Shown: positions 4,703-34,694 of the stretch, piece after piece
Layout of the letters: every line of letters starts with the position of its first letter
Position numbering within the stretch: the first letter of the stretch is position 1
Assembly: GCA_008636045.1 (NCBI GenBank)
Contig: SNRW01000049.1
Span: forward strand, 1-34,694
Origin: Streblomastix strix
Lineage: Eukaryota
Length of the DNA stretch: 34,694 bases
Reading direction: 5' to 3'
Notes under the pieces: generated by a model
Databases searched by the model: none
What the model was told of the DNA's origin: nothing
Seen by the model: the letters and a program-made list of their open reading frames with translations, nothing else
Translations under genes and position numbers: made by a program

Positions 4703-7700
4703 ATGACAAAGAAGGTTGGAAGATATTTTAATCCATATTTGCAAACTGCACACGAACCTTTGCAACCCCCCGAATTTTTGTAATCAGATAATAAGGAAGA
4801 TCTTATTTCTCGTATATCTTCAAAATAAGTTCCATCAAAATAAATACCTGCAACCTTAGCATCGATAAACACACCAGAAAAAAATAATATGAACATTGTA
4901 TTTAGAGGGTTAGAATCTCTTGGGGATTCGCCAATAAGACCAAATTTAGGAATTTAATATTAAGGATCAAAATTGGGTAATATTAAATTAAATGAATATG
5001 AAAAAATAGAAAATTCTACTTTTAAACCATCATCTGCCCCTATTGGATAAAAACGATAAAATTAACAACGTCCACGTTCAACTCAATCGTATTTCTCTAC
5101 AAGTGACATTTAAGTAAAAAGTTTTTAATATAAGAATTTTCCAATTGTAACTCGTCCTTCATTCACTCCAGGAACTAACAAGATGATTGGATACAATACA
5201 TGAAACTTAACAAATTCAGGTTAATTCGCATCCAAGATTGGTCAAAGGTAATTAAAATCTACATAACCAATAATATCACCAACAGAGCCTAGCACATAAA
5301 ACCAAAATTCAAACACTGATGATTACACTTAAGATAATATAAATATAAACAAGCCTTAGTCATTACTATCTTACTTTTAGGAACCTATTACATCTTAAGA
5401 TTTGCAAATTGATAATTCAAGTGATCTTCCTTAATGGTTATAGTTTAGTTAGTTAGAATCTCTTACAATTGAATCATTTTCATTTCCTCTTTCAGAATAA
5501 TTAACTCCAATGTCTAAATCTGAAATGTTGGAAGCTACAATATAAACTATTGCCTAAGCAAATGAAAAATAGAAAAAAGAAACAGAATATTTGTTGTAAA
5601 AGAGCACACCTGGATATGCTAAAGTTTATTTTATTATTAATATCGCTTAAATATTTAAATATATTAATTATTATTTTATTTTCATGTGATTAATTCATCT
5701 TAATAATATTATTAGGCAGGAGGAGCAATTGCATAATTTTCATTAAATGCATTTTAAAGAGCAGAAGCATCAATTAAAGCTGCAGAAATAGAAGCTAAGA
5801 TTTCTTAGTAACATAATGCATCTGATTAATTGTGGAGAAATATAATGCTTTAAACTAATAAACGAACTGAACCTACCAGGTATTTTTATTTTAATAGTTC
5901 TATATTATTACATTATATTCTTTTTTAGATAAGATGCTGAATTATTGGAGAAATGGATAGATTACCAGATAATGTTGTTGAAAGGAGAAAATCCAATCGA
6001 TAGAAGAGAATACTATAAGTAATTTTAGACTATTTTAGGTTGAGCATTTAATGAGTTAAATAGATAGGTAACAACTAGTTGTTTAGAGCGTGGCCATCTC
6101 TTAACTCATTTATGGATTTTATATTAATCAATTTTTGATGTATGAAACAAATAATAATAATAATAAGTTTATTAATTATTTGTAAAAATAAGTATTATTT
6201 AAATTGAAAACTTTTTTTTAATTATTATAACTATATATTAGGATATTATTCGTTTTATTACACTTAATCGTAATAAACATATAGAATTAATGGAACAATA
6301 ACTTAAAGATAAATTATTGTAAATAAAAAAAGAATAAGAAGAAAAAAGCAACACTGAATAATAGCATTTTTAGTCTCAAATAGTTTCATTAAGAGAATAG
6401 AATAGAGCTATTTCAAAGAGTTTACTTGAAATTTAGTCATAATTAACCGATAAAGAAAAAGAAATTTTCGATGCATGTTATATTAATAAAAATTTAAATA
6501 GTCAAATATTATTATTATTGTTCTTATTCTTATTCTTATTTTCTTTTTATTTTCTTTATACTTACAATTATTTTAGTTGCGTGAAACCAATAATAATCTT
6601 GAATAGGATATACAAAAATTGCAAAGCACGTTGATAAATTCTCTCAAGTTTATGTAAAGAGTAGACTAATAAGGAAATGATAATATTCATTAAAATAGTA
6701 ATATACAATAAAATAAAATAAATATTTAATAAGGAATGAATGAAATAATGTAAGGGCTGAGAGGAATAAGTATGTTTTAGTTATGAATTAAAGAAGAAAA
6801 CGTTAAAATAGAATAATAACATAAATTGATATTTATTTATATTATTATTTATATTATTATTTATATTATTAATATTATTATTAATATTATTACAAAATTT
6901 CATTTATTTCTTTACTATATTTAATTATAAATTTATTATTATTTGTTATATAATATTTATAGAGGGAAAGAAAGCTGGAGGAAATCTAAGAAAATTGGTT
7001 TCATTAATAATAAACTCGAAGCAAAACAAAATAAAATAATAAGAAATTAATTATAATCTACCGATTTCTATTTAATAAATTAATGATATTAGTCAAAACA
7101 CTAATAATGATAAAGTTAATTTGTAAAAAAGTGAATAATCCACATAATAATCTCAATAATAATTACCTAATAGATTTGCGAGAATTTCTTCAATTAATAT
7201 GAAAGATTGGTAAATGAATTAGAATATGAATAATTTATTGAATGAAAATTAATTATAATAAGATCAATAATAATAAATAGAAATCACGAAAGAAACAAAT
7301 GAAGAATAATAATAGTAATAAAAGTATGAAAATGAAAAATAACCAATAAAGGAAGAAGAAGGAATTTAAAATGATGATTAAGATGAAGAAATTGAATTGA
7401 AAATAATCAAAAAAGAAAAAAAGAAAATATATAAATATGAATATGAATATAATGATGAAGAAGAAGAAGAAGATGATGATGATGATGATGATGATGAGGA
7501 TGACGAAGTTGAATAAGAAATTTAAGGAGACATTAATAATGAATAAAATATAACACAACAAATATAACAACTTAATAGAAAAAATAATAAATAAAATAAT
7601 ATACATACGAAAAAATCTTTTTCTTTCCTAAAAACTGTTAAAAATATCGATAATTAAAATATAAATATAAATAATAATAAATAACCAAGTTGGTTAATGA

Positions 7701-10700
7701 AATAATAAGAAGAAGAATTAAAAGAAGGAAAATATGCTATAATAATGAAGGATAATTGTAACATTTAAATTTTCGATAAAAATAAAGAAGAAAAAGAGGA
7801 TTTAAAATTATTGAATTAAAAATAAGAATAAGATAAATAATAGTTCAAAGAAGACTTTCCAATTAAAGAAAATATTAATAATAATAAAGATATTGATGAA
7901 TGTTAGAATGAGCATTAACATGTTAAAATAATAACTTTTCCATTTTCTTTCATTGATCCGAAATAAATTTCGGAATATTTATAATAATAGTCTGATAATA
8001 ATAAAGCTTAATCTATTGCTATATAATTAAGAAACAAAAAAATTGCTCTTGTTGATGTTAAGAGTGAAGCTGAAGGTAAAAATTAAGAAGATTATGAGTA
8101 AGAATAATAAATATAAAATATATAAATGAAACAAAAACAATATGAATTATAGGGTGATAATTTGTTGTAATAAGAATATGAAAGAGATGAACAATAATCA
8201 AACATTTCATAGAGGCATATTCTTCATTAACACCAACCATAAATTATTACTCCTTCAAGATCTTATGATCAATAAAATAAGAAAAAACAATTAAAAGCAG
8301 TTTAGAGACCAATTTCATCAACTTCATATTCTCCTTTGATGCTTTTTTCTTCATCCTTATCATCTTTTAAATCATCTTCTCCCTAATCATAATCATAATC
8401 ATAATCATAATATCAGCAAACTAAACAGCTTTTAAAATCAAAATCGTAACCTTTAATTAATTTAAATATATAAGAATAATATGATACATAACAATAATAA
8501 TCATAATCATAATCATATTCACCTTCTTCTCCTTATTATGAAGAAAATTCTATAATTCTAAATACAAATTAATAAAATAATGAAGAAATATAAAATATAA
8601 ATGAATATAATGAATAAAAAGAAGAATCTTTGGAAGATAATTTATAAGATGCAAAGTCAATTGCAAGCTAATTGCATAGATAATCAACGAAAGGTTCAAT
8701 CTATACACATATTACTGTAGTTTCAGATAATTTTTCTGAGTTATCAAGTATTTCAAATTTGTAGAATGTCTCTAATTTACCAAAATTAGATTAAGAGAAG
8801 AAATAATAAAAAAAGCGCAAAAAATTATCATTTAAATAAGCCGCTAGATTAAAGATGACTACAAATGCAGTATTCCCTACATCTTAATAACTACATTAAT
8901 AGCAATCATAATAATCATTATAGACTATCAATTCATAATCATCTATTCATATTAGTTAATAAAAATAACAAACGTATCATCCTTCCCACCTTCATATTCG
9001 TCATATCAAAAGCAAATCACAATAAAATACTTTTAGGAAAGGTAATTTAAAGAGACTTTAATAGTAAATAAAGGATGAAGATTAAGAATAGGAATAAGAT
9101 TTAGAATATGAATAAATGGAAATAGAATAAAATTATGAAGGAAAAGAAAAAGAAAATAATTCATTTGATTTTAGTTTAAATGATGATAATATTAATGTTA
9201 TTAAATTAAATAATGATGACATTGAATATGAAAATGATAGTACAGAAAAAGAGAATAGTGAAAATGAATTTGGACAATAAAGAAATAAAGAAATATTATC
9301 TAATGTATTTTAGAGTTCATTTAGTCCACTTGATACTATTAAAGAAGAAAAAGAGAAAAAGATTGAAAAAGATATGGAAGTTAATAATTAGGAAGAGTAA
9401 GATTAAAATAAAGAGAAAAAGAATGAAGATGATAAAAAGATGGATAATAATTAAGATAAAGATTCGGATAAAAAATTAATTAAATATTACACTGCATATA
9501 ATCCATAAAATCCTCGTTATAATTAAACTAATTATTAGCAACAATTACTTCCAAGTTAACCCAATATTAATGAAAATAACATTAATAAAAAAATATCAAG
9601 ATCTAAATCATAAATTCAATAATAATATATAGATAATAATTTGAATTAAATCTAGAACAATAAAGAAAACACAAATTTTGATTAAAAGAAGGATTATTCA
9701 TTAGGTGCAAAACGCTAATCAAAAATTTATTAATAATATGTGTAATAACAATAGATAAATAAGTAAATTAAATAATAATTAGATAGTAATTTAAATAGTA
9801 GCAATAACTAATAACAATAATTAAGTTCAAGAGTATTCAAAATTAAGATTGACAAATTACCTAGAATATAACCACAAATAAGAGTTATTGAAAAAGATGT
9901 TGGCATATAATGTTATTTGGATGATAATTAAATGTATTTAATAGACGAAATAAAATAAAGGATGAAAGGATAAACATTAAACTTAGAATAAGAGAAAGAA
10001 CAGAAGAATAATGAATAATAAAAAAATGATAAAGAATTGAATACGTAAATAAGGAGGATAAATTCAGTTACAAAAGAAAATTCAATTTAAAATGGTATTT
10101 TAAGTAATAAATTAAATTAATCCGAAGAAAAAGTTAAAGGCATCAAAAATGAAATAAATCATGAAATTTAAGGATAAAACAAATATAATCTTCTTCTTAA
10201 AGTTCAATTTGGATTATAAGATAAAATATTAAATGAATAGGAATATCTATAATGGAAATAGAAAATGAAAGAAGAAGATGAATTAAATGCAGAAAATGAA
10301 GAAAAAAGAATTAAAAAGAAAGAAGATGAAGATGAATAGAAAAGAAGATAAGAAGAAGAAGATGAAGAAGAAAGAAATGAATAAAAAAGAATTGAATAAG
10401 AATAGGATTTATAACTTAGAATGAAGTAGATAGAATTATAATATATAAAACAAAATAATAAAGCATATATATCTTAATAATTTATTTAATTACAAGCACT
10501 CTAATAATAATTATTAGATTTGGAAAAGAAAGAAAAAGTGGAAAAAGAGAAATAAGAAGAATTGAAGAAGATTGAAATTGAGAAATAGAAAGAGAACGAA
10601 AAATATGAGTAAGAATATAAACAATAAATACAAATGAAAAAGATATATTAATAATAACAATTAAGGTTAGAAGAAAAAGAAAAAGAGAGAAAGTAAGAAA

Positions 10701-13700
10701 GAAAAGAAGGATAAATATAATTTGAAACATAAAATATTATTATAGGTACAGATTTTATTTCAAATAAAAATTAGAATGAAATTGCACAATAAAGAGATAA
10801 TGAAATAAATGTAGTAAATCAAATAGAATAATAGAAAAATGAATTAATAAGTTAAATAAAAATCATTCGAAGGAGTATGATTAACAGAAAAATAGTAAAT
10901 GAAGAGGATATTATATAGAAATAGTAATTCTTATAACAATTATATTCAAATCTCTTCAACAATCATAAATATTCATTGGCATCCTTTTAACTTCCCTCGC
11001 CTGATACAATCATTGCTCTATATGAAGAAGAGTATCAAGTTATCTTATAATTGTCTATTATAGATGAAATCGAGAAGAAATTCAGAGAAATTAATAATGA
11101 GAAGAAACTTACCGAGAAATAACAGGAAATTGATTAAGAAAAAGTGATAGAAATCGATAAAAAGAATTAAAAATAGAAAGAGAAAGAGAAAGAAAAAGAA
11201 AAACCTAAAAAGAAATTTAAATAAGAAAAAGATAATATATAAATTCCACCTATTAATTAATAGAATTTAAAGTAAAAAGAAATATAAAACCAAATACAAA
11301 TATTAAAAGTTGCCTAAAAAGCTACTAATTAAATATTATTAAATAGAACCAATGAATTTAACGATGAACTTGAAGAAGAATAATAATAATTAGGAGATTA
11401 AGATAAAGAATAAAATATTGTCATAAATGGTGATGCTATTGTTAGTTTGTTTATTTGTTTATTATTTTTTATTTTAATTTTCTTCAATTAATTCAAATTT
11501 ACTATTTTAAATATTAATAATTAATCAGCCAAAATGCCTTTGTTTTCAAATTTAATTTCTAATGTCGGACTAAGCTGGATGAAAGATCTAATACCAAATA
11601 ATTATTTCTCAGTAAATCAACTTAATTCATAACAGTTTATATCAAATTTATTTATTTCAAATAATCAAAGCCCAGACAATTAAGAATAACAATTAAACGA
11701 TGAAAAAGGAATAATCAACGAATAATAATTTGCTTATAATAATATAAAAGATGGATTAAATTAAAATATGAACTTTAATATAGGTATTATGCATCCCATA
11801 CTTTATATGAACATGATATAATCATAAGTATTTTAATTAAAATTGAATGAAAGAACGTAGAAAGTGAAGATGAATGAGAAAAAGAACGTAGATGAAGAGT
11901 AAAATGATAAAAATGACTAATAATTGGAAGATGAGGAATAAGAAGATGATATAGATAATTTTCTGGAATAATGGCAATCTATGAATTAATTTAATAATTA
12001 TAACAAATATACTTCTCAAAATTCACAGTAATCTTATTCATATACGCAATAATTCCATTATCAATAACTTTAAAATTAATTCTATAATTTTATCCTTCAC
12101 CATTAGAAATTACTATCTTAATAATTCCCTTTTTCTTTTCTATCTTTTATTTCTATAAAATAAATTAAATCTATTTTGCGAATTCATATTAATTTAATTA
12201 AACAATTAAGAGAATTAGTTGAAAAAGTTATTGAGATGTTTTAAGTATAAATATTATAATTTAAAATAATAATTTATTAATTTTAAAAATATTAAATTTA
12301 TCATTTTTAATTTCTATTTTCTATACTCTTTATATATTAATTTATTACAGATATAATTGAATAAATCTTTGAATTTAAAACCAATAAAATAACAAAAATA
12401 AACATAGATTTAGAAATCCAATCTAAATAATAAATAATAATAATAATCATCTTCAGAATCATCCTCTTCTTTTTCATATCCATTTCCTTCTCCTCAATCT
12501 TCTTAATAATTGACATTTACATTCTCATCATCATCTATAAGTTCTTTCTTATAATAATAATACCCTCTTTCTTTCCCTTGTTTTATTTTTAGAATAAATG
12601 AATAACTACCCTTTTCAATTCCAGATATTGAGATATTTAACATTTAATAAGTTATAAAAATGATTGGAGAAGGAAAAATTATTGAATATGCCTGGGTTTG
12701 AATATTATTATTATACCTTTACTTAGAAATAATTTATTATGTCTTCATTGCATTACCTTTTTTTATTACAATTTATTTATTTATTTAATAGGCAAACACA
12801 TAAATAATGAGAGATTTATAAAATTAACATTAATAATTAAAATAAAAATAAATAAATGAAAATATCAAAATGTAATAATAGTAAGAATTAGAATAACAAT
12901 CTAAATTTTTTGATAATTTGAAACTTTTGAATATAAATAAAATGAAAGAAAAAATAAACTTAAATGAAAAGGAAAAGGAAAAGGAAAAGGAAAGAAAGAA
13001 GAAATAATATGAAAAGAAAAAGGAGAAAGAGACAAATAAAAAATCTGTCATATTATCTTCTGGTAGCACAGAATAATTAAATATAAATAATTAATTATAA
13101 TAATCTTAATAATTATAGTAATAATAAATTATTTACTCTGATAACAATAAATAAACATTATTAGTAAATAAAGAAGGTGGAGAAAATATTGCATTCAAGT
13201 AAATTGTAAAAACTGAAGATTAAAATGAAATTTATGATAGAAGTTAAATTTCATTAGTAGATGCTGCTACTTTATAAAAATAGTAATCAGATTAATTAGA
13301 ATCATAAAATAAAGCAAAATAATTAGACAAGGAGCATGAATAAAATTAATCATTGTAATATTAATAGTAAATATAGTATAGTTCACAATCTTTAAATAAT
13401 TCTGATAGTAATATTAATGAATAAAAAAAAAGAAGATCATTATAAAGTTTTTAATAAAATAATAATCCACAATAATAAAATCATAGACAACAATCCATCT
13501 AACAATAATAAATTTCCAATTAACATACTCAAATATCCTAATTTTAGTCTCATCCTAAACTTCCTTCAATTTAATTATCATAATCAAGTTGATAAATGAC
13601 TCATTAAAAATCATCATAAAGTGATTTATAGAATAAAGAAGTATAATTATTAAAATAAGGAGATAACATTGAAAGAGAATAAAAAGATGATGATAAAGAA

Positions 13701-16700
13701 ATTGATAAGAAAAATAATAATCTTAAATATCATCATATTCATCATCATCACCACCACCATCATCATCTTTAATAATAATAATAAGAAGAAGAAGAATAAT
13801 AATAATCAAATATTAATAATATAGAATAATTAGATGAATAATAAATATAGACAGAAATTAATTAAAGAAATCATTCTCCATTATCTTATAGTTCAATTAA
13901 ATAGAAAGATGATTAATCTTTATCTCTTTCTTCTCGGTCTAACAAATCTTCATCTCGATCTGAAAAATCAAATAAATAATAGAAATTAAAGAAATAATAT
14001 GGATAAAGTAAAATAAATTTAAAAGATTAGTAATTACAATAATAGACAGAGAATTAATTTGATAAAGAAATGATGACTATTAAGAGAAAAGCATAATTAT
14101 TGAATATTACTGATACTAATTAGTATGAAAAAGAAAATCCTGAATTATAAATATCTACACGTGCATCTTCTCGTATTTCTTTTATTCCTCAACAATCTCC
14201 TTTGATCTAAGCATCTTAATAATAAAAGAAAAAACAAAGTAGAAAATAGAAATAAAATAAACTTTCAAATCAATAAACATAAAAATCTAATCATAATAAA
14301 AGAATGAATACTTATTCATCATTTAATTCATCTGTATCTTCCAATTCAAGACAATCAGCTCGCTCAAAATATTCTCTTTTGTCCATTTCACAATCTAATT
14401 CTTCATCCTAAGATTCTGCATCATCATCTACTTTCTCTTCATCTATTTCATAATCGCAGCATTCTATTTCATATTCTTCTATTTCATATTCTTATTCTTC
14501 ATCATCAACTTAACATTAAGAGAAAAAATTGAAAATAAGTAAGAAATTAAATAATTAAAAGAAAAATAAATTAATTAATAAATAAATAAAAAAGGATTAG
14601 AGCATTAGATCGTTTCAATCAAATACTTCAAATGGAAATTTAAATATTAAAAAAATTAATAATTTCAAAGCAAATTAAATATTATAAAAGAAGAAAAACA
14701 ATGAAAAAAATTAAAATTAATAACAAAATTAGCAAAATAAAGATTTAAATATAAATATACAATAATAATAAAATGAATAAATAAATAAATAACAAAAAGA
14801 TGAAATTATTACGAAATAAATCGAAGAAAATGACTAATAAATTGTGAAAGAATAAAATACTAATATAGAAAAACAGAAGAAAAGGACATAAAATCATAAA
14901 TCGCACCACCATCATTAAAAACATCATCATCATCATCATCATCATCACAAGAATAATGAATAATAAGAAAAAGAATTAGATAAATAGAATGGTGATGATT
15001 TGATTAAAGTTAATAATTAAATTGTTCCTTAAGATTTAACTCAAAATAATAATGAACTTTAAAATTAAGAATAATAATAGAATTAAGATGATATTCTTTA
15101 GAACAATTCATTAAGTTCAGAATAATAAAAAGAACTTGAATAATAAGATATAGCTTAATAATAAATATTAAAAAAGCACCTAAATCCAGAATATAATCCT
15201 TTTATTCCTTAATCATTCTAGCATTTGATAAGAGTGATAAAAGATTATCATCCAAATTTATTATCTTTATAATAATTAAGAAAAGATATATATTTAATAT
15301 ATTAGGACAAATAAGAGGCTGATTAACTTGATAAATAAAATAATAAAGAAACTTAGAGATTGAGTGAATTTGTATTTGATTATTATTTATATTAATTAGT
15401 ATGAATATATTAATATTATAATAATAGATTTATTATTTTTATTAATTAGTATGAATATATTAATATTATAATAATAGATTTATATTTTCTATTCATTATT
15501 AAATCAATTACCTTTTTTTATTAGGGAATGAGAAATTTAGCTGAAATTAAAATTATTGACTTAATAGCATCTGTGAGAAAATATGCATATCTTTCATCTC
15601 GTGTGAGACTATTCGGAAAATTTTGTGGTATTTTAAATATTCAACATTTATAGGTATTGTATGACACTAATTATTAACATAATCATTAAATTATTGTTTC
15701 CTTTTTATCATTTTTTATTATATTTTAATATTCCTTAAATAGAGTGACCCATTTAATCTAAACTTATTTGATTTATAAAAAGAAGAAGAAAGAAAATAAA
15801 TTATAAAGGTTTGATAAAGATTTAATATTAATTCATCAGTAATTTAAACTTTTGTTGGGTATACTTTTCTGTTTCAATTATAATTATTTTTATTTTATCA
15901 TTTAATAATTGTATAAAAAGGATGCACGTAGTGAATTAATTTAATAGTAAGAGGAAAAGGAGATGAACGAAAAAGAATAGTAGAAAGAATAAAAAAAGAT
16001 TATGTAATAGACTATTAAAGGAGAAGATTAACATATTATTGAAAATAATGATGATATTTTATTAAATTAAAAGTAATTATCATTGAAATTTGCAGCTAAA
16101 GCAGATGTCGCAGTTTAAAAGTTTGAAAATTTACTAAAGAAAAAAAGAAACGAAAATAATAATGTAAATATCAATTAAATGAAATAATAATAATAATAAG
16201 ATGATGAAGATAATAATAGAGATAATTAGTTTGGAAATGAATAATTTGATAGTGGAAATTATTTTAATTTTGATTTATAGAAATAAAAAAAACTAATGAT
16301 GAACGCATTTTCTGGTATTGAAGATGAAACAGGTAAAGATTAAACAGATTAATAATAATAATCATCAGATAGATAAATAGACTAAAATTAGAATTAATAA
16401 ATTAAATTAAAATAATTTTAACCAAAATAAAAACAATTTTTAAATAAATTATCATTTGGATAAAATAAATAAGATTTTGAAATGAAAATTATATAATAAC
16501 CTTCTGTATCTAATTTGAATTTATTAAAATAATAAAGAATTAATAATATTACTTTAAATGAAAGATTAAAATCCGGTCAACAATCATCAATTTCATTATT
16601 AACATCTAATTCATCATCTTCTTTCTTTCCTAATTAACCGCAATTTTCTTCAATGCAAATAAAATAATAGACAAAATAATAATCATAATTATAAAAAGAA

Positions 16701-18155
16701 ATGCATTAATAATAATTGAAATAATAATTTGAAGGAGAGTTAACAATTAAAAAGAAGAAAGGAATTTAGAATGTTTTGGATTATTTGTAAATAGAATAAA
16801 TAGACGTAAAAGGAAATATTAGTAACAATGATATTAAGAATTATAGAGATAATTTTGATAGAAATAAGTTTATAATATAATAATTTAATAAAATTAATAT
16901 TTATTTTTTATTTATTTTAACGTTTTTTCATTACTTCTGCTTCTCTATTTAATATATTTAGTATTGCAGTTTAAAAATAATAATAATTAGATGACATTTC
17001 CCCTCACTCGTTTGACTTACAGTGGCCAAAAGCGGCTATTGATTTCACGATGAGATTATTATAATTGATTTTGTAAAAAGGCACTGCATTAGCATTACCA
17101 ACGCTTTCTACAGCAGATGAATAATTTATCATATCAATTACAAGAGCTGTAGAATCAGCTTAATAATTCTTTAAAGTTATAATATTATTATCTAAATTAA
17201 ATAATTCATATATCAATTATTTCACATATATATCATATATATTTTTCATTATATTTATTGATATTAATAACAGGATATGCCAGATAAATCAAAATAACAT
17301 ATAATCGCAGAAATATAGAGAATTGGTGCTGATGGGTATGCATCTAAAATTAAATTAAACAGAATAAATTCAAATATTTTTCTTTTTATTTTTTATATAT
17401 AAATTTTCAATAGTACTGTTAATGTTGATGAAATGTTGGAACTCGCTACAATTGAATATATGACCTAATATTACATCTTAATATAAAAAATCAGCAACAT
17501 ATTAGCATTCTCTGCATTTTAAAATTCACCTTATCTTTCTAAGATATTTGCATAGAAAGCCAGAAATAATGGAGTTGATGAAATTGAGGTGTTAAATGCA
17601 GAAGAAGAATATTTGGAAGTATTTTCTGTGCTTTCTTCTCTTTCAACAGAGTCAATCCTTACATTTAATGAGTTTCGGTCTATAGTAAAAGTATTACAAC
17701 CTACATTAGAAGAACGAATGGCAGTAAGACTTTATAGAGAATCGCTATGTTATTTTGATTCATTAGTTATTAGCCCATTCTCATTATTAATCGTTTGTGA
17801 TAACGCGGGAATTTTTGGTAATGCAGGAACATCTCTGAAAATACCGAATAATATTTTAATATAAGTTGATGAAGATAATAATTAGCTACAAAATATAATA
17901 AGTATAATTTGGAAATCTTCATATCCATTATTAAGTAGCAAACTGATAGATATATAGACTAAGTAACCAAATCTTCCAATATCTGCATTTGGAACGCTTC
18001 GAAATAGAATTGAAAATATAAGTGTTGTTGTTTCATCTAATAAGACTCCATAGCGAGCTTTGCGTGAGATCAGAAGCCTCTTTGTAGATTTATCATTACT
18101 TGGAGGAGATTTAACATAAGGAAGAGGTGAAAGGAATTAGATAATGATGTTTTGA
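4703..18155 (+). CDS. Giant (~4,009 aa) protein: N-terminal axonemal dynein light chain (p28/DNALI1/AXDND1-type) domain, coiled coil, Q/E/K/S/N low-complexity middle, C-terminal TSNAXIP1-like/EF-hand-like region; contains 3 in-frame TGA
   Basis: Exons 4703-5623, 5716-5879, 5929-6139, 6242-6472, 6577-6769, 6963-11444, 11529-12244, 12351-12695, 12792-15398, 15525-15653, 15743-15808, 15921-16867, 16962-17175, 17274-17335, 17414-18155 sum to 12,030 nt (divisible by 3) with compatible intron phases. Motifs: EPTRQDAELLEKWID...AFNELNRQVTTSCLERGHLLTHLW (Ax_dynein_light FxELxRQVxxxCxERGxLL); IYQDKQEADQLD...LSEFVFDYYLYQLGMRNLAEIKIIDLIASVRKY...RVRLFGKFCG; LTFNEFRSIVKVLQPTLEERMAVRLYRESL. In-frame TGA at 5201, 6041 and 13590; terminal TGA at 18153-18155. 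Confidence 0.8.
6473..6576 (+). other. Probable non-canonical GC-AG spliceosomal intron
   Basis: The downstream exon (LRETNNNLEQDIQKLQS) needs a phase-0 donor. The GT dinucleotides at 6477, 6501 and 6520 are phase 1, 1 and 2, whereas GCATGT at 6473 is phase 0 and resembles GTATGT. The acceptor is ttttag at 6576. Confidence 0.6.
15381..15483 (+). repeat. ~50-bp tandem duplication spanning a 5' splice site
   Basis: attaattagtatgaatatattaatattataataatagatttat occurs at 15391 and again at 15441 (period 50), duplicating the GTATGA donor (15399 and 15449). Confidence 0.9.
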
Positions 18156-18361
18156 TAAAGATGATCATATTAATTTATTTTATAAAAACCTTGTATTATA
18201 TTTATTTCACGTACTAATTGTTTTTTTCAAAATTATATCTAATATTGACATTTTCTCTTTTTGTGAAGATTAATAAAATATCCTATAAATAACCAAAATT
18301 GAATATACATGTGAACCAATTTATATTTTTTTCTAGTCATTATTCCTACTATTATATATTC

Positions 18362-18843
18362 AGTATATTTTAAAATTTTTAATATAAATCCAACACTTTA
18401 ATTATCCTCAAAAAAAACCCAAACTTAACCCAACAACAAGTGAGAAATTAAAATAAAAGATCTCAATGTTATGCATTAATCACTACTGTAAATTATGTGT
18501 TTTTCTATATATATTATCCAGAAATAATTTTTTTAATTTGGAATCATTCTCAATAATAACATTTATTTTAATTCCATCGAGTTATGTCTCGCTGAAATTC
18601 ATATGAAAAAAAACAACTATTACGCTCGCGTAACAATCATTCAGTTTATATATCTACATTATTATTATTATTATTATTATATATTCTTTGCTTCTAACCC
18701 TTCCACCACATACTCACAAATAAATTCACATTAAGCGACATTTAACCAAATGATTTAAATTTTTTTAATAAACAAGTCGAGTGTTCTCAAATAATTAATA
18801 CATTTATCTTTTGTATTATATTAAATTTTTGATAAATTGACTT
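18362..18843 (+). repeat. Left arm of a long inverted repeat; forms the upstream region of MED10
   Basis: Reverse complement of 21231-21700, e.g. aatccaacactttaattatcctc, attccatcgagttatgtctcgctgaaattcatatg and ttccaccacatactcacaaataaattcac are all mirrored. The arms differ by scattered substitutions and (ATT)n length. Confidence 0.95.
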
Positions 18844-18910
18844 GATCTCATTTTATTTGCTGATTTATTTTCTTTTCTTAAAGACTATTAGTTATTATAT
18901 TTAAGTTCAT

Positions 18911-19498
18911 ATGTCGGCTGAGCTTGAAGAACTTCTAAAATCCGCGTATCTTGGATTGATTCGTCTTCAATAAATGGCTGAAGGTACAATATAATCATCA
19001 GATGATTAATTTAAAGAGGAAATGTTTGGTTATTCTATATGTATTATCCATATGTAAAATTGATTTTTTTTATTAACCAACCATTTTGTAGTTAAAATTC
19101 TATGGAAATTATGAATAATATGTATGAAATGAAAGATGCCGTACCCATTCCTATACCAGAAGAGATTATTTAGTGTGATATACTTTATTATTCCTTTCTT
19201 AATCTTAATTAATCCTCATTTATTTCACAGATTAATAGACCGCAATGTTCATCCAGATGTATTCACACAAGAGCTTCTTGCACAAACATTGAACAAGATT
19301 AATTAAATGAATACTTAATTGGTCTCTTATGAGGTTTGCTAATTATTTAATACATTTACTTCTTAGTACTCCTATCAGTTGCTTAAAGGGAGATTAAATG
19401 CAACTGGAATAAATTCAAGTGAAGAGGAAGCAAATGCAATTTTAAGTCAAATTAACTTAGAAATATAAAAGCAAAAGGAAAATTAGGAAGTATAATGA
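18911..19498 (+). CDS. MED10: Mediator of RNA polymerase II transcription subunit 10 (Med10/Nut2); exons 18911-19023, 19092-19172, 19231-19333, 19367-19498 (142 aa)
   Basis: Spliced protein MSAELEELLKSAYLGLIRLQQMAEG...PIPEEIIQLIDRNVHPDVFTQELLAQTLNKINQMNTQL matches the Med10 signature (VPxEvxxyIDxGrNPxxyTxexlexxxxxN). Three GT-AG introns with consistent phase; TGA at 19496-19498. The last 33-nt intron is in frame and less certain. Confidence 0.8.
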
Positions 19499-19641: not shown

Positions 19642-21114
19642 TCATTTCTTCTTCAATATGCCTCCACCTCCTTTCACAATTACTTTACTATTTGACATGT
19701 ATGAAGAAGAGTTATTCCTCCCAAGAGCTGTATTTCGTAAGGCAAAATTTCGAGCAGCTGGAGACATGGCGAGTAATTGTTGTCGTGGTGTTTGTGGTGC
19801 CATTGCTCGAGGTGTCTACATATTTGCTGCTCCTGACATACGTGGTGTGAGTGATGTAATCTAATTAAGTGAAATGTGACCTTGTTTCTTCTTCATAGCT
19901 ATTTGAGATGGTGTTGATTGGCTTCGTGTTACTCTAACAGCCAAAGCAGCTCTCATTTTATCAGCGATGGCATGTGCTCCTTCTTCCCTCGCTGGTGTTG
20001 GCGGCATCCTGAATATTCTCTCATCTGCAACTCCAGCTCCAATTTATAGACCCAATTCCTCTGATCCTGTATTGATTAATTTGGGAGTACTTCCAACTGA
20101 TCCCCAAGTAATGAATGGTGTTACTCCTCCTTATGCAAGTCTCCCTGGAGAAGGTGCAGGTGTATTGATCTGTAAATCTGATACATTGGATCCAATATTT
20201 GGTGTTACTCCACCCCAACCCCAATTAACTCCTGGACCACCGACTTATTCTTCTTCATTTATTGGATCATTTGTTTTAATTAGTTAATTATTAGATTCAA
20301 TTATACTTGTTATTTCATCTCCAGTTAAATTATCTCTTTTAAATCGAGTATTTTATCTTCTCACAATAGAAGGAGGTCCCATTTACTCTTATGGATCAAG
20401 TTATTAATCACCTGGTGGAAGACTGACAGATGTTGAAGTGATGGCCATTGCAAGTGTCGGTGGTATTGATGATGTTGATGATGTTGATGTTGAATTGATG
20501 TGAATTGGTTATTCGGATCTTAATACAATCGCTGATGAGTTTTCACTGCGTAAAATTATCGCTGTTGAATTATCTTTTTAGGTTTAATTTCCATCAGTGA
20601 GCTGATGATAAATAAAGAGTAATAATTATATATATTAAAATAAACATTTTGTAGATATACCATTTTTATTTATTCTTATGGTTGTAAATTGTTTTCTAAG
20701 TTCTAATTCTATTTTTTATTTCTAGAAAAAGCCCACTGCATAAAATGAATTAAAGAAATAAATTATAAATCAAATAAACAAATAAAAGATCATAAACCCA
20801 TCTCTATTGGCGGAAACGTTCACTTTGATCATCCATCAATTCTCGAAAACTGGACATAAAAATATATTATACGTATATTTAATATAACAAACAAACCTAT
20901 CAGTATCCTCAGCTGTTATGTGCTCATGAATTGTATCAAGGTGTGCTTTTGTTTTATTAATTTCTTCCTTCTACTGTAATGTTTGACCTTCAATATCACC
21001 AATACCTTCAATAGTTTGACTTCGCAATGTTTTCAAGTCTGGGAAAAAATCACGCTCAATTACATTCCTAAGAATATTCATATATTTTTTCTGATCAAGT
21101 ACGTTTTCAGCCAT
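19642..21114 (-). CDS. ESS2: Splicing factor ESS-2 / ES2 / DGCR14 homolog; exons 21114-20897, 20849-20798, 20735-20661, 20601-19642 (434 aa)
   Basis: MAENVLDQKKYMNILRNVIERDFFPDL, ITAEDTDSFRELMD, TPAPSPG..TPFITWGSVGSTP, FRMPPTPAREE and MSPAARNF match ES2-family motifs (VLDExxY..IxRDFFPD, TSEDNASF, SPxMTWGxxxxTP, SPAAQ). Ends at TGA (tca at 19642-19644). Confidence 0.92.
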
Positions 21115-21230
21115 AAAATTCTATGTTTCTATTCAAAATAAACAAAATTAAGAAATATTATCAAATTTCTGGATTGTTAATATTAATTTTGTATCAATAT
21201 ACAGAATAATAAAGTAATTTAGAAAAAATG

Positions 21231-21700
21231 AAGTCAATTTATCAAAAATTTAATATAATACAAAAGATAAGAGTATTAATTATTTGAGAACGCACAACTT
21301 GTTTATTAAATAAATTTAAATCATTTGGTTAAATATCGTTTAATGTGAATTTATTTGTGAGTATGTGGTGGAAGAGTTAGAAGCAAAATATATATAATAA
21401 TAATGTAGATATATAAACTGAATGATTGTTGCGCGAGCGTAATAGTTGTTTTTTTCATATGAATTTCAGCGAGACATAACTCGATGGAATTAAAATAAAT
21501 GTTATTATTGAGAATGATTCCGAATTAAAAAAATTATTTTTGGATAATATATATAGAAAAACACATAATTTACAGTAGTGATTAATGCATAACATTGAGA
21601 TCTTTTATTTTAAATACTCACTTGTTGTTGGGTTAAGTTTGGGTTTTTTTTTGAGGATAATTAAAGTGTTGGATTTATATTAAAAATATTAAAATATACT
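21231..21700 (-). repeat. Right arm of the long inverted repeat; forms the upstream region of ESS2
   Basis: Reverse complement of 18362-18843; its inner end is 116 nt upstream of the ESS2 ATG. Confidence 0.95.
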
Positions 21701-21808
21701 AAATGTTTATACACAACCTTTATTAATCAACTTGTTCAGTTATGAAATGAATAAAAATCATTCAACAAGCAAAATTAAATAATTTTATAATTTGAGGGGT
21801 TTTACCAT

Positions 21809-24800
21809 TCATAAATTTTTAGTGTAATTTCTTTCGTTAATGACCTGAACAGATGCGATTTCCCTATTAAGATTTTATGTTGGAACTTGAGATTCAGGAG
21901 ATGTACATGAATGATTTGACTAATTAGCCTGAGGGAGCAATGAAGTTGTAGATTATGAACTTGGAGATAAATTTAATTGTGAGGAATTTGCATATATTGG
22001 ATGGAAAGACAAGTTGAAATTCTTATTTTAAGTTTCTGTATCATTATACTATAAGAATTGATTTGTTCCAAAATGAAATGATTCAATGGATGATTCTGAA
22101 TGAACTGATGGTGATGCTTATCCTGGGGTTTAAAAGAATGATGATGAAGAAGAAATCAGTGAAAATGGAGATTAAATAGTAGAATCATACGATTTATCTG
22201 AATGATTAGACACTGGAGAGAATATTTGATTAGAACTATTCATTACAACATTTGAAGGAGATATTTGAATGGATTATGGAATTGATAGAATATTTGTTGA
22301 TGAGTGTTATTAATTGCTCTTATTTTTCTTTCCTTACGAACTCAACTGTTTATTCTTATTTAATTAATTGTTAATATTTAGTTAATTATTCAATTAAATT
22401 GTATTTTATTTATTATCTGCTTAATTCTTTTATAAAAATTAGGAAATTAAAATATTTGGTTCGGATGTTGTTCGAGTAATTCCACCTTCATTTGATCTTT
22501 GAATTTCTAACTATTAATGTGAATATTAATTAATTCCTTTTCTTTTTTCAATTCCAGCTTTGTAGAAGTTTAATGTCAGTTCAGTTCCTGCATATTCATC
22601 ATCAGGTTAATAAACAGAGTTCTTGTGTTTGATTCTAATGTGTTTGTTATGATCTTATTATATGTTTCCAATATGATTTGTTGATGTTTAATTGTGTTTT
22701 GTTTATCTTTCATTTATATTCCCATTATATGATGGAGATGGAGGAGGAAGATCAATAGCAGGTGACTAATCATATAGAATGACATTTTAGTTATTAATAA
22801 TTGAAATTGGTGTTTAGTCTTTGCTAATTAACTCTTAAGTATTTTATTAATGAATAATGTGAGAATTGATGGAAGTATGTTTTTTCTTTGAATTATTATT
22901 ATGATGATGATGAGAATGATGTGTTTATGACGATTTGGATGAAATGAAAGAACTTATAGATGTGTTGGAATCATAAGATGATAGAGATGATAAAGTTTAT
23001 TGAGCAGGAGATTTCATTTATTTTTCAGATTAAACATTTTTATGGGTATCTTATTTGTACTTAATCCTAATGTGTTTATTACTATTATGAGAATTTGATT
23101 TATGGCTTTAATATGTTGATTTGCTTGATCTACTTATGTTACTATTGGATGATATGCTATAACTACTTATACTATCACTTATATTACTTAATGTTCTGCT
23201 ATGATCACTTGAATCTAAACTTGGACTTAAACTTACAAAACTGCTATATTCCGACCCATTTTCTTGGTCAGATGAGTTATTCTGTAAATTATCTTATATT
23301 TTATTAATTTATTATTATTTGATTTATTTTTTATTAAAATTTATCTTTTGATTATTTGAATCTTATTATTCCAAATTTGTTTTTTATTGTTTTTATTAGG
23401 CAGGTTTCATATTATTTCTTTAAAAATTTTATTATTAAAATATGTTTTAATCTTGTTTTGATTTTGAGAGAGATTCATTATTCTGGGGAAATGATTTATT
23501 TATATGATCAGAAGAATTTTAATTCAATGTCGTGTTTTATTCTTCCCAAGCTGAATAATCACGAAAAGTGTTTGTCTCTCTATTCTTAATTTGTTAAGTT
23601 TAAAAATGTGGCTATTAAATAATATTTGAAGAAAATTATTATTATAACTAATTATATTAAGGTTACATAATTGTTCCATTATTAAAACTTGGAGGATAAA
23701 AATATAACCCATTTACATTCATCTGAGGGTTTTAAATAACTGGAAACATTCCTGGTATCTGAAATTGATTATTTAATGACTACAGTCCAAATAGTTATTA
23801 TTATTATTATTATTAATTACTAATAGTTTATTCTGACTTTTCTTTTGCTAAAGACGATTTTTTCCCTGGATAATTATTTGATTATTGATTTTGTGGTAAA
23901 AAAGAAGCTGGGTTGAGAAACTGCATTGTGGATGGTATTTATGAAGAAGATTAAGAGGGTTTTATTGTAAAGTGAGATGTTTATTATTTTGTTTTATTTG
24001 AAACTGGTGATTTTTATAATACTGTTGGCATTTAATCAATATGATCTTCTTTCTCTTAACATTTCTAATTATAACATTATTCATCCTCATTATTTTCATT
24101 TTATTTTTCTATCATTTCAATATATTTCTACTCATCATCTGTATTTAATTCACCTTACTTCACCAATAAATCAGGATAAAAAGGAGAATTGGCAAATATA
24201 TAACCATATCCTGGGTAAGGCAATACATTTTAAGGTACTAAATGACTTCCTCCAGATCCACCGCTGTCTTTAGAAATTGTAGTTTGCAGAGTATGTGCAG
24301 TCTTAGCTGATGCTACTGACCACATTCCAGCTGTTCTGGTTGTTGTTGTAGATATATGAGAATATATTGATAATTTGTCTGATAAGTCTTCTTTGATACT
24401 ATCTTTCTCCTTATCTTTAAGCTTTTATATATTTAAATTCAATTCTTTCTCTTTTGGCACCTCATCTTTAGTTAATAATCTCTCTTTCTCAAATATCTAT
24501 TTATCATCTTAATCTTCTGCATCTTATGTCTCTGCAACAGAGGATAATGAAGGCATTGTTGATGTCCTTTGTGTATGTGTAGATATATGAGACCTGACTG
24601 AAACAAGATCTGATTTGTCTTCTTTCTCTTTCAATTCTTCATCTCCATCTTCATATTATCCAGATTAATTATAAGGTATTGGTTGTTAAGGAAAATGTAA
24701 TGGAAATAAATTATTCATTTAATTATTACTTATTCCAGATCCAGTTTAAGAAGAAATCATCCTTTGCTATTGAGCTAATGCAGTATAATATAGTGAAGGA

Positions 24801-27800
24801 TTTGATACTATAGGATTGAGTGGAATATTTTGTTGCTATGATGATTATGTTTAAAAATAAGGGTAAATATAAGGAATTGGAATTGGTTATATTAAATTTA
24901 GAGATTATTATTATATTTGTGATATATTTAATGATGAAGGAGGAATTAAATTTGATATTCCAGAATTTTAACTGTTAAATGAAGATTTGTCCTACTATAC
25001 AAAATTCATACTTGCATAGTAATTAAGGTATACTTAATTCATATATGTAACCCAATCTCTCATTCTACGCTCAGCTTTTGCCTGCTCTTAAACCTGTTAA
25101 GCATTTGCATCCTCACAAACATCATCTTCTTCATCATCACTTTATCCATTAGTTTAATTCCTGTTATTACTTATAGTTCCATCCAGTCCTTCTTCTCCTT
25201 CAACTTCATCTGCTGCATCACGAAGCAGTTCATTATCAACATCTTCATTGTTTATACTAATTTAGAGTGATAATGGGTCTTCTACTGGTTTTGAATTCAA
25301 TTATAGTTCAGATGGAATTTCACTTTAAATGCTTTCAACTGATATTTTAATTTCCTTATTTTCGATCTTAAAATCTTATTTTTATTCACTATACGTTCTT
25401 TTCATTTCTGTCATATCAATATTTGAATTTGTATCTATTTCCTATTTTTCTTTTTCTTCCAATTTTTAAAATTGCAAACAAATATCTTTGTCAGATTTAT
25501 TATGATCTGTTTGACAATCAATAATTATATTCTTCATAGAATTAGACTTTTTTTTCATATCAAATTGCTATTCTTATTCAAATTTATCTTATTTGTTAAC
25601 TTTGATTTTTGTTTTATCTTTAATTCTTATTTCGTTATTTTCATCATTCATGTTTTTATTTTCAATTTCAATTTCATCTTTATCCAGAAAAAACTTATTC
25701 TATTCAACTTATAATTAATTTAATTTTGAGGGAGTATTACTATTGCAAATAATATGAGATTAATTGTGGACATTAGAAACATCTTATTAATTTTCTTAAA
25801 TAAATGGTGAATGTATTTCCAATGGCATAATATCACTTTATAATTCAGATTATAAATCCTATGATGGATGCGAAGATGTAGAAGATGAATTTAAAATTGA
25901 AATATTCTTAGGTGTTGGAGATGTAATTTATTTGACATTTGACAGAAATGATATCGGAGATTGTTAATGATCAGGAAATCCTCCTTTAAATTACTATTAA
26001 TGAATGATCTTAGAATGAAGTGAAGATGAATTTTATTTCTTTGAAAGTGAATTTGATCTTTAAGCTTAATTTTTATCTTCATCTTATTCTAATCTTAAAT
26101 TATCTTATCTTTATTAATAATCCTATGTTGATGGTATCATAAACGTGAATGGAAAGGGGTATTGATGTTGAAGTGAATAGTTCCTTTATTGAATTGACTG
26201 CAAAGGTGATCGATTCCTATTTGCAGATTTAATTGGTTGTGAATTTGAAGAAAATTAGGAGAAAGATTAGGAAGATGTTTGCATTGGTGGTTGTGATGAG
26301 GAAATCTACAATGAAGAAGAAGATTATAATACAGGAGAATGAGATTATTTTTATATTTATGACGATTATTAATTGATTAATTACTTTATAGAATTTTTGC
26401 TTCTTTTAATATTTGATGGTTAAGAAGGATGAGGTTAAGTTATAAATTGTTTTCTTTAAGTTTGTTTTGGCTTTATTTAATAACTAACTTTTGGTTATTA
26501 CGTTCTTTATTATGCAATGTTTGTTTAAATATTATTATTCATTGGGTTATTCACCTATTTATCAATTTTCTTTCTTTTTAAAGCACTTTAAATTTAATGA
26601 TCTTTTAATTCATCATTATTTTTGGTTGTTTTTAATTATTTCATAATCTCTTTTTTCTCAATTTCGTCAACATAGGATAAATTAGTTTGGTTGTGTTTTA
26701 CATCTAAATATTCATCTACATCTTCTCCTGATTAGCGATTTTCATTCTCATCGTTGTATTCTTCTACATCGTTGATGTTATTACAACTTATATTTTTCTC
26801 ATTTAAAATTTCTTCACAAGATTCTTTCTTTAATTTTATCCCTTCATTTTAATTATATATGTTAACATCAGACATTACATCCTTTTATATGATCTCATTT
26901 TAATAATTTTCATTTTAAGTTTCTTTTTCCATTGAAATTTAATTAATTTTTTCTGGTTTTTATTATATTTCCTACTCTTTCTCTTTTTCTTTCTCTTTCT
27001 CTAATTTTGTTTCAATTTCATCCAAAATAAATTATTATTATTCTCCATCTAGTTTTGATTAAGAAAATATCATTGGATTTTCAAATGGTAAATAATATTG
27101 ATATGCATTTGGATAAGGAAATGGAAAGAAGAAAGGTAATGAAGGAGGTATTATCTAATTTGGAAATTAAGAAAAATTGTTCAAGTTGCCAAATTTTACA
27201 AGTTTAGAAGAAGAAATGTCAAACTGAGATGATTAGGATGAAGAATTTTATTATTCATTGCCTTCGTTTTAATCTAATTCTTCGAATGATAGATCTTATT
27301 ATTAAGTATTAATTTTGATTGATTGTTGATTATTTATGTTTTAATTTGTTTCATTAATCTATTCATTTCTTTCTTAAATTTCTTATTAATGAGTTTATAA
27401 TTATTTCAAGAAATGTATTTATTATTAAAGTTAAACATTCTGATGAAGTTGTATCATTTATTAATTCATCATTTTTCTCGCTTAACTTTCCTGATTCTGT
27501 GTTGAAGCAAATGAAGGTGGAAATGGAAGAGATGAAAGTTAAAGAGGAGGGAAAATAACAATTCCTGGATTGTGATCTTATTATGACTCTGAATCTGACT
27601 AATCTTTTTATTTAGCATCTTTGTTTTATTATTAATTATATTGACTTGTTTCACTTTCAACAACTGCTTTCTACTCTTCGTGAATACTATCGGTCTATTA
27701 CTCAAATTCAATTTAATTTTAATTGATCTAATTTAATTATTAACTTTCTTTTGTTTCTTAACTTTTCTCAATTGAATTATAATTAGAATCTAATTATTAT

Positions 27801-30155
27801 TCTATATTATCATTTAAAATTTTCTAATCTTTTCTTTCATCAAATTTGATTTAAGAAACTAAGTAATTATCATTTTAAATAATTTTATCATTCACTTGAA
27901 TTATTTGTTCATTTGTATTTTGATTAAGATTAGATAATAAATCAAAATTATTCTACTAACCATCATCCTAAAAAATTAATTGTTACTAACTTATTTATAA
28001 CTAATTTTATTAAATGTTTTAATTAAATGAATAATTTTGTTATATTTGTTATTATTATGGCAATATTTACTAATGAAATGGTGTTACTGTATCACTTTTG
28101 ACTAAAATATTAATATTTTAATTTCTTTTAGGTTAAAATACTGGTGCTGATAATCTAAGCTGTTTCTTAACTTTTTCTGGAGAATTTTAATCAATTTATT
28201 ACTAATCTACATAACTGCTGTTAATATTTAATTATGAGGTCAATTATTTTTATTATATGTTTTAAGGTAATGTGATAGGTTCAATGTACTAATGATTATT
28301 TTATAAAGGAATCTGAGTTTAATTCAAATTATTTAAATAATTTGAATAAAGTGGAGGCTGTATAAGTTAATTCTATTGAAATGATTAAGTCTAATTGTAT
28401 TAATTTGTTAAATCTTATTGTTATTAAGGTGAAAAAGGTAATAAATATTGCTATTAATTATTTGTTTAATTTAAATTTATTGAAAATGTTTGAATTGGTT
28501 ATATTTACCTATTATAATATTCTGAAGAATGAGAAGGAAGTTAGTGAATTTATGGATGAATTTAATTAATATCATTTGATTAAAAAGAATAAGATGGAGA
28601 AACTTGATTAAATTAATATGAAGAAGAAGTCTATTATGAAGATGATATTGAAGAAGCTATCTATTATTATTCGTTGATATTTTGAATTATATATTATTAT
28701 TATTATTATTTCAATTGATTTAAATTTTAACTTGAATTTAGATTATTCATATGTGATGTGAATTATAATGAATCTCTTTCTTATACATTATTCATTATTT
28801 AAAGAGATGATGACTATTAATTAATTAAATTGGTTGATTAATGAATTGTTTTATTAAATTCTATTTATTCCTTATTCTTATTTACATCTGCTTTCAATAA
28901 TTTCTTTTCTTTTTTCTTTTCTCGCATCTTTTCTTTTCTCTTTTCCTTCTTTTTCTTTTTCTATTATTCTTTATCTTATTCACTCTTTTCTACTTTAGTT
29001 GGTTTAACCTTCACTTCATGAACTGTCCAAAAATAGTTTCTCTTTTTCATTTTCTATGATTTGTTCTCATATCGAGGTTTATATTTAACACATACCCCGC
29101 AAACGTTCACCTTCCTTTCTTACTCTTCTAACTATAATGCTCGAGTTGCAGCCTGAATAATAAAATTTATAAGAAAATGAATGTTAATAAAGTAACATTA
29201 AAGAAGAAAATTAAGTTTAATAACCCTTTCTCCTTTTCCACTATTCACAAAAAATATTATTCCACATCCTTTGAAATTTCCTAATCTATCTACTTAAAGA
29301 TCAGCACGAATGACAGGACCAAATTTCTAAGCAAAAGCTTCAATCACAGCCTCTTCTGAAAATGATTATAAACTACTGTTAGGAATTGGCGTTTCAAAGT
29401 AAACGAATATTGAATTATTAAGAAATTCAGAATCAGCCCACATTACATTCAATATGACTCCAGAGTAATTCAAGTTAATAAGGCGATCTTTGGCATGTTA
29501 AGCACTAAATCTAAGTTCATATTGAACATACAATGTGAAGAATCCCTTAGTTTCCTCTTTTTCCAATGTTTTAACCCTTGCATAATCTCCAAAATAACGA
29601 AGATTGACAAGATTATAAAGCTCCGAATGATTTGCTGAGAGTGGAATTGGGAAAATGGCAATGCTTGTGTTTATATGAGTTTTGCTAATTCTTAGAATGC
29701 ATCCATCCTAGAGTTTCTGATATAATAATTGAAGCAATAAGAAAATAGATAACAAATAAAAATTGTAAACAAGAGTTCGTTAAGAAAGCACATGTCGAGT
29801 GGACCTTGTATCGCTGAAATATATAAAGGCATATTTCTTTAGTTATTCATGTTTCTTTTAAATGGATTGTTCTTTCGCAGAAAAATCAATATTATTCTCA
29901 AATTAACAATGTAATATTTATCCGAATGTACTGAAAACTCATCATAATTCAATTGCATCAAACAGTTATAAATCTCCACGAATCATAACACCTGTCCTGC
30001 TTTTTATCTCATTTAATTAGTTAATTTCAGTAGATTTGTGAGATTAATTTATTTGGGATGAAGATCCTACGAAATAAAAATAGTAATTGTCAGAAAATGG
30101 TCAAAATAAAAAACATACCTACAAAAACATTTTGATGCGATTCAAGTGGTTCCAT
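21809..30155 (-). CDS. Large (~2,720 aa) RNA-binding protein with three N-terminal RRM-like domains and a ~2,400-aa Q/S/N/P-rich low-complexity tail; contains tandem in-frame TGA-TGA in RRM1
   Basis: Exons 30155-30119, 30066-29771, 29716-29225, 29152-21809 (8,169 nt, divisible by 3). RRM1: TGVMIRGDLQLFDAIEL**VFSTFGQILHCQF...KYAFIYFSD. RRM2: SIAIFPIP...YFGDYARV...LYVQYELRFSAQHAKDRL...LNVMWAD. RRM3: SIFVYF...AFAQKFGPVIRADLQVDRLGNFKGCGIIFF. The last exon has no in-frame TGA for 7.3 kb. The first downstream TGA is 21811-21809; an alternative stop is 21760-21758. Confidence 0.82.

Positions 30156-30578: not shown

Positions 30579-34694
<4,116 letters not shown>

Follow-up and report, generated by a model that had tools for sequence, protein, structure and literature searches.

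Contig SNRW01000049.1 of the termite-gut oxymonad Streblomastix strix (Metamonada), analysed here over its full 34,694 nt (the window), suggests that this organism probably has a genetic code without a dedicated stop codon, in which UAA and UAG (UAR, or TAR in the DNA) encode glutamine and UGA, besides ending genes, would be a rarely used arginine codon. NCBI table 6 is the code published for S. strix (Keeling and Leander 2003, cited by PMC13002328 and PMC10089648). The genes of the window resemble that code in that TAR specifies glutamine, TGA ends genes and TGG specifies tryptophan; they differ from it in that five in-frame TGAs lie inside genes that look intact.

Internal TGA codons in two genes

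Spliced models of six genes (A to F) were built in this analysis without transcripts and were translated with table 6. They contain 24 introns (23 GT-AG and one GC-AG) with a T fraction of 0.42-0.61; a preliminary description of the window, made from the DNA letters, had put the intron lengths at 33-193 nt, where the models give 45-196 nt. All six frames are continuous and free of frameshifts, and each closes with TGA (at 4328, 18153, 19496, 19644, 21811 and 30581). The only internal stops under table 6 are five TGAs in two of the six genes: three in gene B (4703..18155, forward strand; 15 exons, 4,009 aa, or 4,010 codons with the stop) and a tandem pair in gene E (21809..30155, reverse strand; 4 exons, 2,719 aa, or 2,720 codons with the stop, the terminal TGA being at 21811-21809). 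The preliminary description had placed every one of these TGAs correctly, both the internal ones (+5201, +6041, +13590, -29944 and -29941) and the six terminal ones.

The 10,026 codons of the six genes include 986 TAA and 171 TAG in frame, together with 200 CAA and 41 CAG, and TAR stands at 7 of the 13 glutamine columns that are conserved between gene B and two of its orthologues (P0002 and P0003). TAA and TAG encode glutamine in S. strix, as had been proposed. TGG occurs 38 times, 12 of them in gene B, where about a dozen had been estimated. There are 368 ordinary arginine codons, of which 32 are CGA; the five internal TGAs, if counted as arginine, make up about 1.3% of the total (5/373), and TGA:CGA is 5:32 as against 986:200 for TAA:CAA.

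The orthologues of gene B come from a profile search that used only the 130 positions before TGA 6041. It returned five, namely BLNAU_19495, BLNAU_22010 and BLNAU_19170 of Blattamonas and two unnamed fragments; a further match, P0006, was dropped as unrelated. The Blattamonas orthologues are single proteins that match gene B from its N-terminal domain (Ax_dynein_light-like, PF10211, E 2.9e-5, short of the curated cut-off) through to its C-terminus, and in the aligned parts they agree with the modelled splice junctions (one donor being set at 15399, not 15372). At columns common to P0002 and P0003, identity is 20/29 before 6041, 198/330 after 6041 and 160/272 after 13590. The sequence 5' of TGA 5201 matches P0005 (E 1e-5), and this N-terminal piece is absent, as an exact sequence, from the protein collection searched. 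On these alignments, gene B is evidently one protein, with orthology spanning all three of its internal TGAs. A degenerate pattern of the conserved motif after 6041 matched no metagenome contig.

The three sites in gene B differ in what they tell about the residue. TGA 6041..6043 (codon 400) lies within the conserved domain, in the motif ILG-(TGA)-AFNELNRQV, and its column holds R in P0002, P0007, P0003 and P0005 and K in P0004. Since this TGA stands exactly where relatives have arginine, the codon probably specifies arginine when it occurs within a gene. TGA 5201..5203 (codon 167) is in a poorly conserved region, where one BLASTP alignment places an R of P0005 at the site and MAFFT does not. 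TGA 13590..13592 (codon 2688), which is followed by TAAA, falls in a Gln/Ser-rich expansion that the orthologues lack, and no orthologous residue is aligned with it. The terminal TGA of gene B (18153..18155) is also followed by TAAA; the Blattamonas orthologues stop 6-10 residues earlier in the alignment, and G+C drops from 0.36 to 0.17 across this codon.

Gene E encodes N-terminal RRM domains (PF00076 matches) followed by a long low-complexity tail. Searches of the PDB matched the RRMs to PABP and p14, the first RRM being left unaligned, and in orthologue searches the sole match was the window's own annotated protein. The tandem TGA TGA (29939..29944, reverse strand; codons 54-55) falls in helix 1 of RRM1, in EL-(TGA)(TGA)-VFSTFG. 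All 20 residues were tried at this pair and scored against PF00076, for which the Pfam cut-off is 20.7 bits. The scores were 21.8 for E and for K, 21.4 for R, 20.9 for Q, 20.6 for D, 17.4 for W, 16.2 for C and 16.1 for I, so that arginine clears the cut-off and tryptophan and cysteine fall short of it. Trp, Cys and Arg are the residues that yeast places at UGA (PMC4150775), and of the three it is arginine that fits the RRM pair best.

In gene B, the conserved columns (P0002 and P0003) show TGG at 5 of 6 tryptophan positions and TGA at none of the six, and TGA at 1 of 34 arginine positions. In the code of table 27, an internal TGA aligns to tryptophan; here it does not, and two tryptophans in the RRM score 17.4 bits against 21.4 for two arginines. 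Nor do the sites look like those of a selenoprotein: the 6041 column is R/K, cysteine in the RRM is second lowest of the 20 residues, and the window contains no match at the gathering score to SECIS or to any other Rfam family. The residue at the internal TGAs is therefore probably arginine rather than tryptophan, which the preliminary description had assumed by precedent and which the Arg/Lys column at 6041 and the TGGs at conserved tryptophans do not support.

The public annotation of both genes is affected, as had been predicted from the reading of the codons. Model EZS28_000578 (gene B) ends at ILG, directly before TGA 6041. Model EZS28_000583 covers the N-terminal part of gene E only, and it skips both RRM TGAs by means of a predicted 150-nt intron. 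The donor of that intron has a score of -2.9, whereas those of the 24 modelled introns have 2.3-12.6; the skipped stretch scores +15 bits as coding, and its removal deletes most of the Pfam RRM match.

Two of the five TGAs were compared with sequencing runs, over positions 1900-10200 and hence at sites 5201 and 6041. In run X1, a contig of 6,044 nt covers positions 1900-6502 with five differing letters (at 2794, 2914, 3935-3936 and 4337) and no gaps, and it has no difference at 5201-5203 or 6041-6043; the check by reads that had been called for thus found both TGAs kept, in a run that is possibly the window's own source. The coverage of run X2 lies outside 5201 and 6041. It agrees with the letter of X1 at three of the five differences, which may point to two alleles or cells, both presumably carrying the TGAs. 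X2 also gives four short pieces in gene B, without gaps and with 11 differing letters, and two of the three differences listed are TAA/TAG swaps (low depth and weak evidence). The records listed included no further long copy of gene B. The four runs listed are from termite guts and none is of RNA, and no RNA match was listed for positions 4700-14600, a result that says nothing about expression.

Alternatives to arginine at UGA

Several points weigh against the reading of UGA as arginine. The residue is fixed by orthologues at only one of the five sites, so that arginine is firm at 6041 and compatible at the two sites of the RRM pair, where Gln, Lys and Glu fit as well as Arg. The distant p28 dynein light chain paralogues in the PDB have Q at the 6041 position in five of five chains (three alignments and two human-type chains of equal range, with Q read directly in four printed alignments). 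TGA is rare, whereas TAA is used freely, and a count of 5 in 373 arginine codons is what rare nonsense alleles would also give. The X1 contig, if it comes from the window's own source, is no independent confirmation. Both RRM TGAs might be spliced out through another acceptor, a weak GAG at 29938 with a score of 11.6. Moreover, UGA readthrough in yeast yields Trp in 82% and Cys in 14% of cases and Arg least (PMC4150775), so near-cognate decoding by itself does not predict arginine.

The most probable of the alternatives is that the organism uses plain table 6 and that the TGAs arose lately by nonsense mutation, either in genes that are dead or dying or as tolerated alleles of one cell line. 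The rarity of TGA is in keeping with this, and a neutral divergence of about 1% would yield three TGAs in gene B and would be invisible in comparisons with Blattamonas, so that the orthologues alone are insufficient to dismiss a very recent decay. CpG is depleted (observed/expected 0.53), and the change from CGA to TGA may consequently be fast. However, genes B and E contain no frameshift in 6,728 codons, and decay would also have to have killed two of the six genes in one window. Substitutions that create TGA amount to 2.2-2.6% of all substitutions in these genes, about half of them from Gln codons, and a random nonsense TGA would originate from an Arg codon in 7-11% of cases (under two simple rate models, neither of which has a boost for CpG). 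As for indels, an inverted repeat in the window has two of frameshift size per 18 substitutions; the probability that five of five lesions are TGAs is 0.0002, 0.004 or 0.048 at indel ratios of 0.11, 0.05 or 0.02, respectively, and about 0.001-0.09 if the tandem pair is one event, while two independent lesions would be adjacent with a probability of 0.0008. The X1 contig, despite its five differences, retains both of the TGAs that it spans with no second long copy of gene B among the records listed, and the gap-free X2 pieces, with their TAA/TAG swaps, point weakly in the same direction. Taken as a whole, decay is unlikely. Another possibility is that TGA is a sense codon for a different residue: glutamine (one transition away from TAA), tryptophan (as in table 27), cysteine or selenocysteine. 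Glutamine reaches 20.9 bits on the RRM pair and is the residue of the p28 paralogues; tryptophan is the main product of UGA readthrough in yeast (PMC4150775) and the residue at UGA in known stop-less codes (PMC10089648); and oxymonads are said to make selenocysteine (PMC10703272). Against this, the true orthologues have R or K at 6041 and never Q, W or C; the conserved tryptophan columns are TGG; W and C are near the bottom of the RRM scores; SECIS, like every other Rfam family, is without a match at the cut-off in the window; and glutamine at UGA would require decoding with a second-position mismatch, which yeast did not show (PMC4150775). Such a reassignment is quite improbable.

The mRNA might also differ from the DNA. 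U-to-C repair of stops occurs in the organelles of hornworts and ferns, and an editing of UGA to CGA, with arginine inserted under the normal code, would predict exactly what is found, that is, arginine, rarity and intact frames. It would, however, have to spare every terminal TGA; we know of no nuclear U-to-C editing system in metamonads; and the high frequency with which other TAR=Gln organisms show TGA=Arg (see below) points to decoding, making editing very improbable. The remaining way for the TGAs to be absent from the message is for them to lie in introns or to be skipped through alternative splicing, as in the public model of gene E. Frame-preserving GT/GC-AG candidates do exist at every site (38-62 each), the best of them scoring 10.0-12.3, in the lower part of the range of real introns (6.8-22.3). 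Yet their T fraction of 0.30-0.39 is below that of every modelled intron, the candidates at 6041 would remove codons that are conserved in the orthologues, the annotated RRM intron has the poor donor, coding score and loss of domain described above, and a GAG acceptor, as at 29938, is used by none of the 24 modelled introns. When coding is weighed against intron sequence, each of the four TGA sites, taken with its 30-31 surrounding codons, scores +13 to +30 bits, whereas all 24 introns score below -4 (with an intron model tested on its own training set). Removal of the TGAs by splicing is extremely improbable.

Relation to known codes and a possible mechanism

A stop-less code is known in Blastocrithidia. 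Another was described in Amoebophrya sp. (PMC6394959), and the ciliates Condylostoma magnum (table 28) and Parduczia sp. (table 27) have context-dependent stop-less codes with tryptophan at UGA (PMC4967479). In S. strix, as in the latter two, one codon would serve as sense within genes and as stop where they end, the flanks are uninformative and UGA would be a minority sense codon; the difference is that the evidence favours arginine. In Condylostoma, the flanking bases do not separate the two uses, and proximity to the poly(A) tail was proposed as the signal (PMC4967479). Heterotrich 3' untranslated regions are very short, 21-23 nt (PMC4967479). In the window, the distance from a stop to its neighbouring gene or to a stop that converges on it is 143-423 nt.

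A closer precedent is the Q/Q/R code of seven spirotrichs (Uronychia setigera, U. binucleata, Sterkiella, Tetmemena, Stylonychia, Paraurostyla and Uroleptopsis), in which TAA and TAG are glutamine, in-frame TGA is found at arginine positions and all three stops are translated (PMC10089648). The frequencies differ: 5 TGA to 1,157 TAR in S. strix and 987 to 11,723 in U. setigera. Since this spirotrich code, rather than table 27 or 28, is the closest precedent, the type of code is not wholly undescribed, and only part of the earlier suggestion of an undescribed, independent stop-less code stands: the lineage would be new, the type is known from ciliates (PMC10089648). S. strix belongs to another supergroup than the spirotrichs, which would imply an independent origin. 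No report of sense UGA in oxymonads or, from 2020 on, of a UGA=Arg code in metamonads was found in the literature searched, from which supplements and the S. strix genome paper were outside the scope, and a remark on in-frame TGA may stand in that paper or in the cross-eukaryote scan of PMC10089648. In the oxymonad transcriptome study of 2026, TAR=Gln was inferred for Streblomastix from tubulins, and the text has no occurrence of UGA or TGA (PMC13002328); single-cell transcriptomes of S. strix (PRJNA1433164) were published there.

Evidence that such decoding is workable in nature comes from other organisms and does not bear on the S. strix genome itself. Metagenome contigs were scanned for kinase genes in which TGA stands at the arginine of the HRD motif, which gave 75 loci, or 68 after seven near-duplicates had been dropped (a few pseudogene-like loci of other organisms were kept); no recognisable Streblomastix was among the 75. 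In-frame TAR was present in 64 of the 68 and a further in-frame TGA within the kinase core in 47. For 79 scored TGAs (the selected HRD site excluded), the log-likelihoods were +40.8 for Arg, -9.7 for Lys, -144 for Cys and -211 for Trp. The controls assigned TGG to Trp and AGA to Arg, and TAA, narrowly, to Gln, but ranked Asn and Lys above Gln for TAG, so the scoring method is coarse. Telomere repeats were carried by 41 of the 75 loci (C4A4 on 26, C4A3 on 13 and C4A2T on 2), and we take these to be ciliate telomere types. All 13 loci with a telomere at most 1 kb downstream have an in-frame TAA within 60 nt of it (7/13 and 8/13 in the other frames), and only 5 of the 13 have an in-frame TGA there (4/13 and 7/13 in the other frames). 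The likely terminator of these ciliate-type loci is therefore TAA, in contrast to S. strix, which ends six of six genes at TGA. Many telomere-capped, gene-sized contigs use TAR=Gln and frequent TGA=Arg, with 49 TGA against 12 CGA in the kinase cores, and seem to have their terminating TAA 10-35 nt from the telomere; at least two telomere types (C4A4 and C4A3) are represented. More ciliates than the seven species reported may thus use the Q/Q/R code. One locus with TGA=Arg also contains a tRNA-Arg(ACG) gene (L066:2045-2116, reverse strand), the sole tRNA in the 39 loci scanned.

How UGA could be both sense and stop in S. strix is not apparent from its immediate context. The terminal TGAs are followed by T, T, A, A, A, A and the internal ones by A, G, T, T, G, and TGA-TAAA occurs both internally (13590) and terminally (18153), so that local flanking bases do not separate the two uses at these 11 sites. 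All five internal TGAs, few as they are, lie at least 1,322 codons upstream of the stop. Four of the five lie in the first 10% of their gene, a pattern that was noticed post hoc and in small numbers. A weak eRF1 might terminate mainly close to the poly(A) tail, as was proposed for Condylostoma and Parduczia, and a TGA far from the end of the mRNA would be read by an arginine tRNA. Of two candidate decoders, the ordinary tRNA-Arg(UCG), pairing G:U at the first position, is somewhat more likely than a tRNA-Arg(UCA) dedicated to the codon; no tRNA gene was found in the window. The step to UGA=Arg would be the same first-position change, from C to U, as that from CAR to UAR for glutamine, and yeast does use first-position G-U pairing for Gln at UAR (PMC4150775). 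Because arginine is the least inserted of the three residues at UGA in yeast, some change in the tRNA or in its competitors would be needed. UGA is probably decoded with low efficiency, which would account for the rarity of TGA, and the fact that TGA is strongly disfavoured despite AT pressure is more in keeping with a costly, near-cognate use of tRNA-Arg(UCG) than with a dedicated tRNA.

On balance, we favour the view that an amitochondriate metamonad independently evolved a code without a dedicated stop, in which UGA, the sole terminator, became an arginine codon as well through a C-to-U step at the first position, and that this change has been caught early, with the new codon still rare and placed towards gene starts. 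If true, this would be a stop-less nuclear code in Metamonada, for which no earlier report was found, and a case of Arg/stop UGA outside ciliates; what would be new is the lineage, the rarity of the codon and the double role of UGA as the sole terminator, the type of code being already known in ciliates. Since TGA is at once rare and the sole terminator, S. strix would be an early-stage case for testing how ambiguous codes arise, with near-cognate decoding and position-dependent termination preceding any dedicated tRNA. The proteome of S. strix would change too: the assembly has been described as fragmentary, with 56,706 predicted loci (PMC10703272), and, with both TGA-bearing genes mis-modelled in public, these loci and the presence or absence claims derived from them may need re-annotation.

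Other features of the window

Three observations concern the structure of gene B. Its protein is 4,009 aa long, compared with 1,458-1,537 aa in Blattamonas, and the surplus is a low-complexity expansion rich in Gln, Asn, Glu and Lys. Its GC-AG intron (6473-6576, forward strand), with a GCATGT donor, is required for phase and is supported by the orthologue alignment. A near-exact tandem duplication of about 60 nt (15385-15480, forward strand) repeats the donor of intron 9.

The other four genes have no internal TGA. Gene A (1..4330, forward strand) is 5' partial. Gene C (18911..19498, forward strand; 138 aa) is presumably MED10-like, a label also given in the preliminary description; searches with its single exons gave no Med10 Pfam match. 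Both A and C end in TAA TGA (4325-4330 and 19493-19498), which for two genes of six is within chance at about 10% TAA, but there is clearly no avoidance of TAA beside the stop. Gene D (19642..21114, reverse strand) is ESS2/Es2 (PF09751, E 1.6e-10), and the match reaches the last position of the Pfam model 33 residues short of the terminal TGA at 19644. Gene F (30579..34693, reverse strand; 5' partial) has a weak EF-hand match and a terminal TGA at 30581-30579; a comparison with gene B revealed no detectable relationship.

The inverted repeat mentioned above is about 480 nt long (18353-18860, forward strand, and 21210-21709, reverse strand), with 18 substitutions and three indels between the arms and 98% identity over a core of 203 nt. 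It has no Rfam match, and a 22-nt piece of it matched no viral contig. Its arms sit upstream of the convergent genes C and D, and the repeat looks like either a promoter region that was duplicated or the two termini of a mobile element.

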